A stretch of 64,000 nucleotides of DNA from Fibrobacterota bacterium (GCA_947482115.1 CANKII010000001.1:577840-641839), one strand, 5' to 3'; positions 3,635-33,595 are shown, counted from the first letter of the stretch. Made by a program: numbers and translations. Notes: generated by a model not told the origin, from the sequence alone.

Positions 3635-4525
3635 CTAAGAGGGCGTTAAAACGCCATTGTCTTGCTTGAAAAAAGCCTGCTGTCGCGCCAAATGCGCCTT
3701 TTCGAATTCCTGTGCATCTTTCAATTCCTCTTCGGTCAAAACACCGGGTTCACCCGTCACTTCCAGAGCGGCTAGCATGGCTTTTGCCATCTCCAAAAAA
3801 CCTTCTTCGAATCCATTCTCAGGCAACGCGCGAATCTCACTCAACGACATGGCATGGCTTCGCAAGGAATCGAGATAAGCGGCACGTTGTTCTTCGTTGA
3901 GGCGGAGAATTTCCACCAGTCTTTCATGGTCCGGAGTCAAAGGAATGGAGCCATGTTGGAGAAAAGCTTCACGGGTCCTGCGCTGCGCCGAACCCACCAC
4001 CTTCCGTTCACCAAAAGCCAGTTCCGCCCGCGATGTGGATGCAAAACACGGCAGGGTGGATTGTTGGGTTATGGATTTTTTTGTTGAGGCGGACAGTCGG
4101 GGTAGCGCGGTCCCTGAGCCTGTCGAAGGGTGCGCCCCGACAACCGATAGACCAAATCCATTCAATGCCGCTGCCAACGCCCATCCGATCCGCTCATGCG
4201 AAACCGCCAGCGTCGAACACCATGCAGCCTCATCGCGTCGGGCAATCAGGGAATAAGTCAACTCTTCGGCATGCAATACCGCGCGCCCACCGGTGGGTCG
4301 CAACACAAAATCCCAACCGCGTTCTTGCAAGGCCGCCCTATCAAATTCTTCCGAAGGTTTCTGGAAATAGCCAAGGCTCACACACCAGGGTTCCCAACCG
4401 TAAAATCGCACCGTTGGCGGAGAGCGCTTCTCTTCCACCGCTTTCAGAACGGCTGCATCCACCGCCATGTTGAATGCTCCGCGATGTTTACCCGTGAATA
4501 AAATGCGCCACGGTTTTGCGTTCAT
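3635..4525 (-). CDS. Lipoate-protein ligase / octanoyltransferase family protein (BPL/LPL catalytic domain)
   Basis: 296 aa. The N-terminus (FTGKHRGAFNMAVDAAVLKAVEE...RFYGWEPWCVSLGYFQ) is typical of the LplA/LipM family. It carries an in-frame copy of hairpin element A encoding HPSTGSGTALPRL. Confidence 0.65.
   Translation of the reverse strand: MNAKPWRILFTGKHRGAFNMAVDAAVLKAVEEKRSPPTVRFYGWEPWCVSLGYFQKPSEEFDRAALQERGWDFVLRPTGGRAVLHAEELTYSLIARRDEAAWCSTLAVSHERIGWALAAALNGFGLSVVGAHPSTGSGTALPRLSASTKKSITQQSTLPCFASTSRAELAFGERKVVGSAQRRTREAFLQHGSIPLTPDHERLVEILRLNEEQRAAYLDSLRSHAMSLSEIRALPENGFEEGFLEMAKAMLAALEVTGEPGVLTEEELKDAQEFEKAHLARQQAFFKQDNGVLTPS
4096..4141. repeat. Hairpin element, type-1 core copy A (GGTCCCTGAGCCTGTCGAAGGG at 4109..4130) with imperfect flanking inverted repeats (gtcggggtagcgcg / tgcgccccgac)
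   Basis: Read directly. It lies inside the lipoate ligase CDS, in frame. Confidence 0.7.
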
Positions 4526-17490: not shown

Positions 17491-18513
17491 TTATGGGGAA
17501 GTAAAAATGACCCCGTCATAACCCACCGCGACAAGTTTTCCGGTCCCTGAGCCTGTCGAAGGGCTTGTCCCCGCGACGGAATACAAGACGGATTTGGCAG
17601 CCAACGAATCGTTTGTCCAATGGACGCCATCATCTGAAACCAAAACCGTTCCTTCATAACCCACCGCAATAAATCGTCTGTTGTTCCACGTAATCGAGTT
17701 CAAGACGCCAAACGATCCCCGGGAAGCCCAGGTTACACCGTCCGGAGAAGCCAAAATATCTCCGTTGTTGCTTACAGCAACCAGTTGACTTCCACTCCAT
17801 GCGAGGGAGGAAAGGGCATTCGTGATGCCGGAACTTTGTTCCATCCACGTCACGCCATCTTGTGAAGTGAGAACCGTACCGTAGTAGCCCACTGCAATCA
17901 TCCGCGTTCCACTCCATGCCACGGAATACAAGTCTTCACCCCCTAAAACACCGTCACTTCCACCGTGAACCGGATCCTGCCGTCCCAATACCGGAAGCCG
18001 TTCGGTCCATGTAATTGCATCGGGAGATGTTAGTATGATCCCATCCCAGCCCACTGCCACAAAGAGTCCGGTCCCTGAGCCTGTCGAAGGGCCGGTCCAA
18101 ATAACCGAGTTTAAAATTGCCGATACTCCAGAATTCCGCTCTGTCCACACCACGCCATTCGGCGATGTTAAAACAATGCCGCCAGACCCCACAGCCACTA
18201 ACTGTCCGGGCCCTGAGCCTGTCGAAGGGCCTGTCCAAATCACAGAGTTCAAGGGATTTTCAGTTCCCGAAATTTGCTTTGTCCAGGTTGCTCCATCGGA
18301 CGACGTCAGAATAATTCCACTCGAACCGACGGCCACCCATTGATGATCCGCCCAAGTCACCGAATTCAATGCCTCGGTTGTTCCCGAGACCTGTTGTGTC
18401 CAAGACTTTCCCAAATTCACATTTTCATCATTGCCGGTCGAAGTCCTCATGCAATTCCAGAGAAACATCGGAATGATCAAAAAGGCTCCAATAAAAAGAT
18501 TCTTATTGCGCAT
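17491..18513 (-). CDS. Secreted BNR/Asp-box repeat protein (Ycf48-like beta-propeller)
   Basis: Signal peptide. Six or more S-x-D-G-x-T-W BNR motifs (TSSDGATWT, TSPNGVVWT, TSQDGVTWM, ASPDGVTWA, VSDDGVHWT). Three copies of PSTGSG(T/P)G are encoded by the hairpin-element core. Confidence 0.65.
   Translation of the reverse strand: MRNKNLFIGAFLIIPMFLWNCMRTSTGNDENVNLGKSWTQQVSGTTEALNSVTWADHQWVAVGSSGIILTSSDGATWTKQISGTENPLNSVIWTGPSTGSGPGQLVAVGSGGIVLTSPNGVVWTERNSGVSAILNSVIWTGPSTGSGTGLFVAVGWDGIILTSPDAITWTERLPVLGRQDPVHGGSDGVLGGEDLYSVAWSGTRMIAVGYYGTVLTSQDGVTWMEQSSGITNALSSLAWSGSQLVAVSNNGDILASPDGVTWASRGSFGVLNSITWNNRRFIAVGYEGTVLVSDDGVHWTNDSLAAKSVLYSVAGTSPSTGSGTGKLVAVGYDGVIFTSP
17542..17563. repeat. Hairpin element, type-1 core copy B (GGTCCCTGAGCCTGTCGAAGGG), flanked by gacaag/cttgtc
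   Basis: Read directly; inside the BNR gene, where it encodes PSTGSGT. Confidence 0.7.
18070..18091. repeat. Hairpin element, type-1 core copy C
   Basis: Read directly; inside the BNR gene (PSTGSGTG). Confidence 0.7.
18208..18229. repeat. Hairpin element, type-1 core copy D (GGGCCCTGAGCCTGTCGAAGGG)
   Basis: Read directly; inside the BNR gene, 141 bp from copy C (one protein-repeat period). Confidence 0.7.
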
Positions 18514-20494
18514 GCATCCACTCCGCAGCCTTTGAGCGCATCTCCCGAATCAATTCCGAGTCTTCCAGTAAATCCACGAACCGGAGCAGCCCAAATCCAC
18601 TTTGCCGTGTCCCGTCCAGACTTCCCGCACCGCGACGTTGAAGGTCCATCTCGGCAATGCGGAAACCATCTTCGGTGGACGCAAACTCGCGCAAACGTTC
18701 TTCGGTTTCCTCCGGCCACCCGTTAAGCGGTGCCAACAGAAAGCACCAGGCTTGCGATTGACCACGACCCGTGCGACCGCGCAACTGATGCAATTGCGCC
18801 AGCCCAAATCGATCCGCACTTTCGACCACCATCAGGTTCGCTCCCGGCACATCCACACCTACTTCAATTACAGTCGTAGCCACCAACGCATGGATTTCGC
18901 CCTTGCGGAATGATGACAAAATGCGTTCACGTTCCTGTGATGGGATTCGTCCATGCACGGCTTCAACGCGCCATTTGCCAACATTTCGTAACCGTTTGAC
19001 GGCGGAATCAATTGCTGCAATGCTTTCCGTTTCGTTGTCCATTTTATTCCCCCCCTCAAGAGGGGGGGATAAAGGGGGGGTGATTCTGGGAACAACCCAA
19101 TAAACCTGATTTCCATTTTGGGTTTCCCGAAAAAGAAACTCCAGCATTTCCTTTTCTTTTTCCGCAGGAACGCGTCGGGTTTTTACCGGCAAACGCCCAG
19201 CAGGTTTTTCCGCCAACGTCAACACATCCAAATCGCCATACAATGATTGTGCCAGCGTGCGCGGAATTGGTGTAGCGGAGAGATACAACACATGCGGTTC
19301 AATACCTTTGGCGGACAATGCTGCACGTTGTTCCACACCGAAGCGATGTTGTTCATCGATCAACACCAGCCGCAATTCTTTGAACACCACGCCGGATGAC
19401 AACAGCGAATGCGTGCCGACCACGAAGGGCAAGCTCCCATCCTTCAGTTTTTCAAGAATGCGAGTCCTCTCATCTGCGGGTGTCGAAGCCGACAACAATG
19501 CGGATTCAAAACCCGCTGCTTTCAATACTGCGGCGGTGGAACGGAAATGTTGCTCCACGAGAATTTCCGTGGGTGCCAGCAACACGGCCTGCGCTCCTGC
19601 AGCCATTACACGGATCGCTGCCAGCAAGGCCACGGCTGTTTTTCCCGAACCCACATCGCCGTGCAACAGGCCAAAGAATTGGCCCTGCGTTTCCAATGCG
19701 GTGTGAATGGATTGCAACACTTCTTCCTGACCTTTGGTCAGCGAAAAAGGCAAAGCGGAATGCGCAGCTTGTTCTGTTTCGGGATGCGCAGTGAAGACCC
19801 GACCCCGGTTTAATCGTTCCCGTCGTGCAACTTCGCGCTTCAAACTTAGCGGCCACAACTCACGAACCTTTATTTCACTAAAAGCCGTAGCGACCAAGTC
19901 CAACGACGTAGGCGCATGCAGAATTTTCAACGCTTCAATTTCGGACCGCAGCTGAAGGAAATTTTTCTCGTCCGGTGAAAGCGGATCGGAAAAAGAAAAC
20001 TGCTCCAGTGTTTCCAAAGCCAGTCGCCGCACCAACTTGTGATCGATGCGAGCTTCTTCCATTTCCTCGGTCATGGGATAAACGGGGAGCATGCCGCCGC
20101 GAGGTTCCTGATCCTCGTCAAGCTCCTCCCATTCGGGATGCGCGATTTGAAAGTCGTGGAAATAGGTCACAGGCCCGGCAACAGAGATTCGCTTTCCGGG
20201 TCGCAGGCGCTGTTTGAGAAAGTGGAGGCCGCGAAAGAAAACCAGTTCAATGCCACCCGTTTCATCGCGAACATGAACGACAAGCCTTGTTCCGATGCTG
20301 TCAGCTGATTCGATATGCGCGGGGAAAAAAGCATCCATCCCCTCTTTCAGGGAATCAATGGGAGTAATGCGCGTGCGGTCTACATACCGGCGCGGCAGAT
20401 AATAAACGAGATCGCGTAATGTGAGGAGGCCTGAGGCTTCGAAAGCCTTCAGGCGTTTGGGACCAACCCCGGTTAAGCGGGATAATTCGGACAT
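18503..20494 (-). CDS. recG: ATP-dependent DNA helicase RecG
   Basis: 663 aa. Wedge/OB N-terminal region, Walker A (GDVGSGKT), DEQH box (LIDEQHRFGV) and helicase C domain. It contains an in-frame G/C homopolymer insertion. Confidence 0.85.
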   Translation of the reverse strand: MSELSRLTGVGPKRLKAFEASGLLTLRDLVYYLPRRYVDRTRITPIDSLKEGMDAFFPAHIESADSIGTRLVVHVRDETGGIELVFFRGLHFLKQRLRPGKRISVAGPVTYFHDFQIAHPEWEELDEDQEPRGGMLPVYPMTEEMEEARIDHKLVRRLALETLEQFSFSDPLSPDEKNFLQLRSEIEALKILHAPTSLDLVATAFSEIKVRELWPLSLKREVARRERLNRGRVFTAHPETEQAAHSALPFSLTKGQEEVLQSIHTALETQGQFFGLLHGDVGSGKTAVALLAAIRVMAAGAQAVLLAPTEILVEQHFRSTAAVLKAAGFESALLSASTPADERTRILEKLKDGSLPFVVGTHSLLSSGVVFKELRLVLIDEQHRFGVEQRAALSAKGIEPHVLYLSATPIPRTLAQSLYGDLDVLTLAEKPAGRLPVKTRRVPAEKEKEMLEFLFRETQNGNQVYWVVPRITPPLSPPLEGGNKMDNETESIAAIDSAVKRLRNVGKWRVEAVHGRIPSQERERILSSFRKGEIHALVATTVIEVGVDVPGANLMVVESADRFGLAQLHQLRGRTGRGQSQAWCFLLAPLNGWPEETEERLREFASTEDGFRIAEMDLQRRGAGSLDGTRQSGFGLLRFVDLLEDSELIREMRSKAAEWMHAQ
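19049..19080. repeat. Homopolymer-rich hairpin-forming tract C7-TCAAGA-G7-ATAAA-G7 inside recG
   Basis: Read directly: ccccccctc (19049..19057) is the exact reverse complement of gaggggggg (19060..19068). Encodes PPLSPPLEGG in RecG. Confidence 0.8.
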
Positions 20495-20496
20495 GG

Positions 20497-20535
20497 CCGG
20501 TAGGGGCGACCCGGCGGGTCGCCCCTACCGGCCCC
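20497..20535. repeat. REP-like GC-rich palindrome (ggccggtaggggcgaccc-ggc-gggtcgcccctaccggcc), copy 2
   Basis: Read directly: 18-bp perfect arms. It sits between the rplS stop and the recG start. It has the same core as the 13566 copy, with two compensatory arm differences. Confidence 0.75.
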
Positions 20536-20540
20536 CACGA

Positions 20541-22182: not shown

Positions 22183-22770
22183 TCAGGTTATTTGTTTCCT
22201 ATGCGCTTTCTCGAATAAAAACACTGCAATAAACGCCCCAATCAATGCGGTAGCCATGTCGGTTTGCGTGTCCCACACATAACCCTGCGTGCCGAGAAAA
22301 GCATCCGCTCCCTGCCCCATCCACAGCGCCGCCAGCATTTCGAGAATCTCATACAATGCGCTGATGCCGCCGCAAACAAGAACCACGACAAAGGACATCA
22401 AAACTTTGTGCCCATCCCAATAGCGAACGCGCATGAAAATTTCCCGGATGGCAATGGCCGGAATGAATCCTTGCACAAAATGACCGAGCTTGTCGTAGTT
22501 GTTTCGAGTGCCGATTCCGAGGTTCTTTACCCACTCTCCGGCAGGCACAAGTGCGTAAGTGTAATGACCTCCCACGCACAATACACCGGCGTGAACGATG
22601 ATGAGGATTTGCAACAGCGGGGAAATTTTCCCTTTTCTTCCGAGATGCCAAACCAAAGGAAGAACAAAAATGACCGGAAAAACTTCCATCAACCATGTGG
22701 CCGCATCATGAGGTGAGATACGGGTGATTGCGAGTTCCAGAACCAAAATCGCCAGGGTATAGGGATACAT
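22183..22770 (-). CDS. Polytopic membrane protein, DUF2238/YjdF-like (tentative)
   Basis: Hydrophobic ORF. The track ORF starts at 22899, but that N-terminus overlaps the divergent nitroreductase gene, so an internal start MYPYTLAILVLELAI at 22770 is proposed. Confidence 0.4.
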   Translation of the reverse strand: MYPYTLAILVLELAITRISPHDAATWLMEVFPVIFVLPLVWHLGRKGKISPLLQILIIVHAGVLCVGGHYTYALVPAGEWVKNLGIGTRNNYDKLGHFVQGFIPAIAIREIFMRVRYWDGHKVLMSFVVVLVCGGISALYEILEMLAALWMGQGADAFLGTQGYVWDTQTDMATALIGAFIAVFLFEKAHRKQIT

Positions 22771-29433: not shown

Positions 29434-30552
<1,119 letters not shown>

Positions 30553-30588
30553 CCCGCCGCGCTTCGACAGGCTCAGCGACCGGCGTGT
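30553..30588. repeat. Hairpin element, type-1 core copy F, reverse orientation, diverged (cgcttcgacaggctcagcgacc), flanked by cgccgcgc / gcgaccggcg
   Basis: Read directly; immediately 3' of the leuB stop, in a convergent intergenic region. Confidence 0.6.
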
Positions 30589-33252: not shown

Positions 33253-33492
33253 GTCAGACTTTTAAAAGGGACGAAGCCACGAGTCCCGATCCTTGGGCGC
33301 TGGCGGGACGTCCAGCCAATAAGAATCCGGGGGTATTGTTTTGGATTTATTCCCAAGCCGGTAAAAAATCGAGGAGAGACCAACCCCCAGAAAATAGGCC
33401 ACCGTAAACAGGATGAAATTGCTGACGATCTGAAAAGGCTTGAGGACAATGCGCAAACCCTTGTCGATTCGATGGAGGATATTGCGAACTGG

Positions 33493-33514
33493 CCCTTCGA
33501 CAGGCTCAGGGACC
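33493..33514. repeat. Hairpin element, type-1 core copy E, reverse orientation (cccttcgacaggctcagggacc)
   Basis: Read directly; in the 344-bp divergent intergenic region between the carbamoyltransferase and ilvE. It is followed by the 10-bp palindrome ctgaattcag. Confidence 0.7.
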
Positions 33515-33595
33515 ACTGAATTCAGCATACGTTCAATTTACATCCCGGAGGATTTTACTAGATAGGAATGTGAACACCCATCCCTGAGAAGATTT

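Follow-up and report, generated by a model that had tools for sequence, protein, structure and literature searches.

Probable in-frame insertion of a 22-nucleotide interspersed repeat into three equivalent loops of a seven-bladed propeller gene from a Fibrobacterota bacterium

The 64,000-nucleotide stretch of Fibrobacterota bacterium DNA analysed here (GCA_947482115.1, CANKII010000001.1:577840-641839; hereafter the window) contains, at positions 17491..18513 on its minus strand, a gene encoding a protein of 340 residues, in which a 22-nucleotide repeat (GGTCCCTGAGCCTGTCGAAGGG, the 22-mer) is present three times. The start of this gene overlaps the end of recG by 11 nt. Its sequence is identical in five independent assemblies, including the NCBI metagenome-assembled genome GCA_947466335.1, and the repeat copies are therefore not an assembly artefact. 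The encoded protein is a probable lipoprotein, to judge by a hydrophobic N-terminus followed by Cys21 (a signal read by eye). An AlphaFold2 model based on 37 homologues (pLDDT 87.9, pTM 0.85) displays seven blades of four strands each, and the top Foldseek matches of this model in the PDB are the structures of Ycf48 (5oj3 and 2xbg; E ~1e-11, TM 0.64-0.71). At the fold level, the protein is thus predicted to be a Ycf48-like seven-bladed propeller. It shares this architecture with Ycf48/HCF136, and its blades carry an Asp-box-like S-x-D-G-x-T-W motif; however, the sequence identity to these proteins is only 16-18% and there is no Pfam match to the BNR or Ycf48 families. The original prediction, made from the DNA sequence, had called the product a BNR-repeat protein. 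This designation is not borne out, since Pfam BNR (PF02012) gives no match at E values up to 1 and the only Pfam signal is a faint, sub-threshold one to DUF6242. Many other bacterial propellers, likewise uncharacterised, make up the large family to which the protein can be assigned (DUF6242_C, also a faint assignment).

The three copies of the repeat all lie on the plus strand and are read by the gene in the antisense direction. Copy B (17542..17563; GGT CCC TGAGCCTGTCGAA GGG) is translated as PSTGSGT at residues 318-324, in the blade 7 loop. Copy C (18070..18091), which is likewise an exact match to the 22-mer, is translated as PSTGSGT at residues 142-148, in the blade 3 loop, and copy D (18208..18229), which differs from GGTCCCTGAGCCTGTCGAAGGG by a single mismatch (GGG for GGT), as PSTGSGP at residues 96-102, in the blade 2 loop. 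On the coding strand these copies read CCT TCG ACA GGC TCA GGG (A/C)CC, and each peptide is followed by a glycine and then by the LVAVG or FVAVG strand. The three start positions given by the original prediction, and its placing of PSTGSG(T/P)G just before this strand, are exact. Copies C and D are indeed one blade period apart, as it had also proposed, but the spacing is 138 nt (46 codons) and not 141 bp (47 codons). Copies B and C are separated by 528 nt and have 26 nt in common, which is 4 nt beyond the canonical unit. In the AlphaFold2 model, the inserts of blades 2, 3 and 7 are situated in the beta-hairpin between the LNSVxW strand and the xVAVG strand; these loops are 11 residues long, compared with 2-4 residues in the other four blades. 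The three loops are structurally equivalent, and all inserts are thus on the same face of the propeller.

That these segments are additions to the propeller is suggested by the comparison with homologues. The closest homologue found (P0001, 58% identity), which shares an unusual insert in blade 4 with the host protein, is devoid of all three segments, and each gap is exactly 7 codons long. A metagenome scan for close propeller orthologues gave a best match of 37% identity, and no matches came from a word-indexed search for homologues of one blade taken by itself. Among the 120 best homologues, the motif is present at the same loop in only two, P0016 (PSTSSGTG) and P0118 (PSTGSGAG). Loop lengths were then counted over an exhaustive homologue search, comprising 929 loops in 269 family proteins, among which long multi-blade proteins predominate. 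The canonical loop has 4 residues (639 of 929 loops), and a loop of 11 residues (4 + 7) is found in 25 of the 929. These longer loops, a minority in the family, are rich in G, S, T and P, and about 10 of them (~1% of the 929 loops) resemble PSTGSG at varied stages of decay (e.g. PYTGSGPG, SSTSLGNG, GASGTGPG, PSGAQGSG).

The DNA of the homologues was compared for three relatives. The insert of P0118 consists of the element's own codons, save for a GGC to GGT change; that of P0072 (PYTGSGPG) is identical to the element at 21 of 27 nucleotides; and that of P0054 is like a variant of the element with T at its sole variable position. The alternation of G and S between PSTGSG and PSTSSG corresponds to this single C/T position, read on the opposite strand. 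At the DNA level, the diverged loops of the family look like decayed copies of the element, and the older copies in other genomes have accumulated both synonymous and non-synonymous changes. The loop of blade 1 in P0118 (locus L002; W T G P G V G Q L, encoded by TGG ACG GGA CCC GGA GTG GGG CAG) may be the remnant of an insert that has lost its central 12 nt, i.e. a footprint, or a coincidence.

The repeat is not confined to the propeller gene. Six sites in the window match the 20-mer CCCTGAGCCTGTCGAAGGGC with no more than 3 mismatches, compared with 0.01 expected from shuffled sequences: those at 17545, 18073, 18211 and 33492 are exact, that at 4112 has 1 mismatch and that at 30559 has 2. The full 22-mer is exact at 17542-17563, 18070-18091, 4109 and 33493, while position 30560 bears the variant GGTCGCTGAGCCTGTCGAAGCG. 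Copy A (4109..4130, plus strand; exact 22-mer) is found in frame, again as PSTGSGT, within a variable loop of a lipoate-protein ligase gene (3635..4525, minus strand) with Pfam LplA-B_cat/BPL_LplA_LipB domains. An LplA homologue with 82% identity (P0122) is exactly 7 residues shorter at this loop. The same repeat unit is thus found in a gene that is unrelated to the propeller and 13 kb away from it. Copy A is moreover nested in a longer palindrome, GTCGGGG..CCCCGAC. Copy E (30560..30581, minus strand; GGT CGC TGAGCCTGTCGAA GCG) is the sole intergenic copy of the window. It begins 8 nt past the stop codon of an isocitrate/isopropylmalate dehydrogenase (Iso_dh) gene (29461..30552, plus strand), between convergent genes, and is a compensated stem variant in which CGC...GCG replaces CCC...GGG; no T-run is present at this copy. 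Copy F (33493..33514, minus strand; exact 22-mer) falls within the first codons (MLNSVVPEPVEGPV...) of a called 88-residue open reading frame (ORF; 33262..33528, minus strand), of which it constitutes codons 5-11 (VPEPVEG) in the opposite orientation. This ORF is upstream of a carbamoyltransferase gene and has no Pfam match, and its true start codon may be further downstream. Of the three comparator copies that the original prediction regarded as intergenic, only the one at 30560 is so; those at 4109 and 33493 are inside called genes. Two near-matches at 22484 and 37569 lack flanking features and were taken as chance occurrences, and a tRNA/tmRNA scan found none.

What distinguishes the three segments of the propeller gene from the rest of the blades is their conservation at silent sites. 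Codons for the same amino acid differ among blades in none of 19 comparisons in the core but in 27 of 41 comparisons in the flanks (Fisher p = 4.8e-7), so that the 22-mer is clearly more conserved at the DNA level than the codons that surround it; this is the comparison that the original prediction had proposed. Moreover, codon choice is identical among the three propeller copies, the lplA copy and copies elsewhere. The proposal that a DNA element invaded a repeat gene is upheld by this silent-site conservation, by the gaps of 7 codons and by the occurrence of the 22-mer in unrelated genes and genomes. In our view, each of the three segments probably arose when a short selfish repeat was inserted in frame, with a net gain of 21 nt (7 codons). 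Alternatively, the PSTGSGxG loop could be a protein-level feature of a blade subtype, its DNA identity with other loci being secondary. Some of the 11-residue, G/S/T/P-rich loops of the family do resemble PSTGSG, but such a feature would sit poorly with its rarity (about 10 of 929 loops in 269 relatives, where the original prediction had envisaged that it might be generic), with its complete absence from the closest homologue, and with the identical codons of the three copies, of lplA and of other loci. The G/S alternation that maps to the C/T position of the element and the resemblance of diverged loops to decayed element DNA (21 of 27 nucleotides in P0072) also speak against it, and we regard this explanation as very improbable.

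A second alternative is a single insertion followed by spread from blade to blade through short-tract gene conversion or homogenisation. This would account for the same position of the insert in all three blades, for the LNSVIWTG-PSTGSG sequence that blades 2 and 3 share at the protein level, and for the 26 nt shared by copies B and C, 4 more than the canonical unit. However, silent differences begin immediately beside the core: 4 of the 7 upstream codons for the same amino acid are not alike in blades 2 and 3, and the identity between the blade 7 flanks and those of the other blades is only 44-64%. The conversion tract would also need to match the boundaries of the element three times. Furthermore, the same loop carries an insert with element-like codons in homologues from other organisms, and an unrelated gene 13 kb away has the same unit. 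We judge spread by homogenisation, which the original prediction had suggested, unlikely in comparison with repeated insertion, although short-tract conversion may account for part of the pattern.

The unit itself was delineated from 265 unique copies, taken from loci with an exact 22-mer. Its consensus is GGT-NNN-TGAGCYTGTCGAA-N'N'N', where NNN and N'N'N' are complementary, and no conservation was detected beyond it. A scan of viral contigs in which the triplets were left free, and which is therefore unbiased with respect to the stem, gave 126 unique copies among the matches listed. The triplet is perfectly complementary in 74 of these 126, whereas shuffled controls averaged 5.75 and never exceeded 14, and at least 26 types of stem triplet are represented. 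In the same copies, the pairing stops at 3 bp, whether or not a bulged T is allowed for.

In a scan of one genome per species, the exact 22-mer was found in at least 120 stretches, from hosts that include Microbacterium, Plantibacter, Bacteroidales, Prevotella, Chitinophagaceae, Treponema and Lachnospiraceae, as well as Fibrobacter, Verrucomicrobia, Thermodesulfobacteriota and Binatia. The unit is thus present in Actinomycetota, Bacteroidota, Spirochaetota and Bacillota, and also on plasmids of Proteobacteria and in viral contigs. It occurs in at least 120 viral contigs and in 41 plasmid records, chiefly from Sphingomonadaceae, Moraxella, Comamonas and Microbacterium. In contrast, 5,426 complete E. 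coli genomes are devoid of it, and its distribution is therefore very wide but patchy. An evolutionary origin of the motif in the propeller gene, which had been offered as the other way to read this locus, or in the family of this gene is contradicted by these results. That a single gene has three copies, and that a few relatives carry the motif at this loop, might be called upon in its support; but the unit is found across phyla, on plasmids, in viral contigs and in unrelated contexts, nearly all copies are unrelated to the propeller family, the unit has a covarying stem of its own with more than 26 variants, and most members of the family lack the motif. We attach almost no probability to such an origin.

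At loci with a GC content of at most 55%, and among the matches listed, 64 of 128 copies are inside ORFs of at least 120 residues. Of these 64 copies, 49 are antisense to the GGT orientation, and PSTGSG is the commonest reading frame of coding copies. Intergenic copies show no orientation bias (19 versus 14), which fits a DNA element better than an RNA signal. Coding copies were inspected at the loci L019 (Treponema bryantii), L093, L072, L062 and L061. In the MetH protein of T. bryantii, an in-frame copy is located between the pterin-binding and the B12-binding domains; in a DNA polymerase I, a copy separates the 5' nuclease domain from the 3'-5' exonuclease domain; and in an FAD/Fe-S oxidase, a copy occupies the linker between Pfam domains. 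A methionyl-tRNA formyltransferase (Fmt) has several copies inside its C-terminal domain, and the type IX secretion system (T9SS) sorting domain of two paralogues also has a copy inside.

The unit is encountered in composite arrangements as well. The 22-mer is repeated head to tail every 23 nt at 124-444 of locus L068 (Microbacterium algihabitans) and at the loci L046, L206 and L057; such arrays reach at least 5 consecutive units, and there are longer composite repeats with periods of 34-45 nt. Microbacteriaceae also have the left half (GGTCCCTGAGCC plus 9-10 nt) reiterated ahead of a full copy. In four loci (L029, L060, L120 and L122), a copy is split near the centre of its 13-nt core by another complete copy, for example ggtccctgagc[22-mer]cctgtcgaaggg. 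From their sequence, these split copies suggest insertion as a unit, which is possibly self-targeting; the arrays with a period of 23 nt likewise point to insertion as a unit. In two viral contigs (L269, 6277-6380; L257, 1516-2440), inverted doublets joined at ACC|GGT are repeated several times between genes, an arrangement that recalls REPIN doublets.

Such a short motif at high copy number, in both orientations, in inverted pairs and with favoured coding frames is reminiscent of DNA uptake sequences and uptake signal sequences (DUS/USS). These sequences arise by substitution and are lineage-specific. A recognition site of this kind, accumulating by point substitution under molecular drive, is nevertheless a highly improbable explanation for the repeat described here: its copies are 7-codon indels relative to homologues and not substitutions, they can be nested or arranged in tandem every 23 nt, the stem triplet covaries, and one and the same sequence is found in many phyla, unlike uptake signals.

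We propose the following scheme for the propeller gene. An interspersed repeat of 22 nt would have inserted into the same beta-hairpin loop of blades 2, 3 and 7. As a selfish repeat, it would land in intergenic and coding DNA alike, and coding copies would survive only where the frame is kept, where the position is a loop or a linker, and where the reading frame is harmless. In the present case, the harmless frame would be the antisense one, which gives P-S-T-G-S-G-T, a flexible Gly/Ser/Thr peptide. Movement may proceed through a single-stranded hairpin recognised by a putative trans-acting enzyme. We infer from the homologue alignments that the segments were gained by insertion rather than lost by deletion in relatives; the three events were presumably independent, and selection probably filtered them. 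The copies of the window genome are probably recent: they are identical to the consensus of the family and to each other, and the contrast between these pristine copies and the decayed ones of distant homologues points to a recent burst in this lineage. Why one loop was hit repeatedly may be explained by its sequence. The TGG ACN GG that encodes W-T-G is read on the other strand as CCNGTCCA, which resembles the GGTCC and the CCTGTCGA of the element. Together with the nested self-insertions, this resemblance makes a sequence preference for the loop possible, although selection for a single tolerant loop would give the same picture.

Several observations weigh against this scheme. No pair of empty and filled sites with high identity was found, and an all-versus-all comparison of 120 loci for such sites gave one imprecise case (L051 versus L088). 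The junctions, any target duplication and the direction of the events hence rest on protein alignments at 58% and 82% identity. A loop that was hit three times in one gene, and in other genomes as well, calls for target preference or strong selective filtering, the 26 nt shared by copies B and C also fit copying between blades, and no polymorphism of the element among strains was observed, the gene and the other copies being the same in every contig examined from this population. Lastly, the predicted hairpins are not unusually stable (z -0.5 to -1.8 relative to shuffled sequences), and a 3-bp stem is too weak by itself for a stable hairpin. The combination of a weak stem with strict covariation suggests recognition by a protein, or a copying process that regenerates complementarity.

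The stability of the hairpins also bears on the possibility that the copies have been retained because they serve the mRNA or the protein, for instance as a hairpin that paces translation between blades or as a binding surface on one face of the propeller. The location of the inserts in three equivalent loops of the same face and the pristine state of their cores would be in line with such a role. On the other hand, hairpins that are no stabler than shuffled sequence, the presence of the same unit in unrelated linkers of unrelated proteins, the decay of older copies in homologues and the closest homologue, which does without the inserts, render it very unlikely, and insertion of a selfish repeat remains our preferred reading.

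Two other models of the insertion were tried and rejected. A target-site duplication was considered on the basis of the direct repeats that flank copies C and D (CCGGTCC and CTGTCC); these would define inserts of 24 and 29 nt, sizes that do not fit the 7-codon gaps and the 4-residue loop, and target duplication was therefore rejected. These flanking repeats are attributed to the W-T-G codons, which resemble the GGTCC/CTGTC of the element. Likewise, insertion of a 13-nt unit into a 6-bp palindrome was dismissed, because the coding inserts carry GGT and both triplets.

Among known systems, the Rickettsia palindromic elements (RPE) offer the closest logic: these repeats of ~105-146 bp, restricted to one genus, are found between genes and in frame within genes, and are understood as selfish palindromic repeats tolerated in frame where the protein is not destroyed (PMC3184786). 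Like RPE and the Bordetella BRE, the present element adds peptides in frame at tolerated positions, and homologues lack the segment; unlike RPE, it measures 22 nt, contributes only 7 residues, and its core is nearly the same in many phyla, on plasmids and in viral contigs. Repetitive extragenic palindromic (REP) sequences are lineage-specific and almost wholly extragenic, with a 5' GTAG and a stem that is conserved. The element is similar to the REP/REPIN system (RAYT, Y1 HUH) in being a short, non-autonomous hairpin repeat that occurs as singlets, inverted doublets and clusters, but it differs in having a conserved 13-nt loop with a variable, covarying 3-bp stem, in its 5' GGT without GTAG, in the location of 64 of 128 copies in ORFs, and in its cross-phylum distribution. 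With uptake sequences it has in common a short high-copy motif, preferred coding frames and inverted pairs, and not the 7-codon indels, the covarying stem and the distribution over phyla. A MITE (a miniature transposable element of 50-500 bp that has the terminal inverted repeats of a parent IS and direct target-site duplications) was rejected because the unit is 22 nt long and no conserved flanks or duplications are visible in the 265 and 126 copies. Hammerhead, T-arm and attC motifs, Tn3-type inverted repeats and CRISPR repeats were discarded since their sequence or architecture does not fit. No match to the window was obtained at gathering thresholds with the 4,227 covariance models of Rfam, nor at E values up to 1 in six copy-dense loci, and a literature search found, within the library covered, no paper with the DNA or peptide strings of the element and none otherwise relevant; the element thus appears to be undescribed.

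A more speculative resemblance concerns the 8-17 RNA-cleaving deoxyribozyme, whose 17E/8-17 core is CCGAGCCGGTCGAA (PMC9821912) and which requires an invariant AG in its triloop and an invariant CG in the next unpaired segment (PMC8266665). The loop of the element taken together with the base N that precedes it, CTGAGCCTGTCGAA, matches this core at 12 of 14 positions. The match covers the AGC loop and the TCGAA segment, with AGC-N4-CGA at the right spacing, and the size is similar, both being units of 13-14 nt flanked by helices. The only variable position of the element's core preserves a G-C or G.T pair. However, the three-bp stem of the triloop is not reproduced: its middle C-G pair is replaced by T.T, which accounts for both mismatches, the outer pair can form only when NNN ends in C, and the inner pair is G-C or G.T. 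Moreover, the flanks of the element pair with each other and not with a substrate strand, and 8-17 was selected in the laboratory. That the 22-nt unit is an ultra-small cross-phylum mobile element, the centre of which would be a natural relative of 8-17, structured and possibly catalytic in its single-stranded form, a property that would drive its spread, is hence a conjecture to which we give very little credence. If it were true, the peptide inserts would be a by-product of the spread of the element.

Another repeat is present close to the propeller gene. Between the rplS stop codon and the recG start, a 49-nt stretch (20492-20540) contains a perfect REP-like palindrome of the form GTAG...CTAC, GGCCGGTAGGGGCGACCCG-CC-GGGTCGCCCCTACCGGCC. 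This stretch is absent from L147 (the NCBI metagenome-assembled genome) and from L148, which are 99.85-99.99% identical and have 2 nt instead. In the allele of the window, the 3' end of the palindrome adjoins the ATG called as the recG start, and in the allele without the palindrome recG is called 52 codons shorter. This palindrome represents a repeat family other than the PSTGSG element and is polymorphic here.

In-frame insertion of selfish repeats is a known phenomenon, and the element appears to be an unusually small and widespread variant of it. To our knowledge, the in-frame selfish repeats known so far are at least 100 bp long and confined to a genus. The focal gene provides a clean natural example, with three pristine copies in equivalent loops and a homologue devoid of all three, and besides this propeller the element resides within the housekeeping proteins MetH, Pol I, Fmt and LplA. 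For the proposition that this is a pan-bacterial mobile repeat, so far without a name, from which protein loops and linkers are seeded, we see the arguments as evenly balanced. If it is correct, this repeat would be a likely cause of spurious small ORFs in genome annotation and would imply a widely shared, as yet unnamed mobilising activity; it would also be a recurrent and general means by which bacterial proteins acquire short insertions in loops and linkers.

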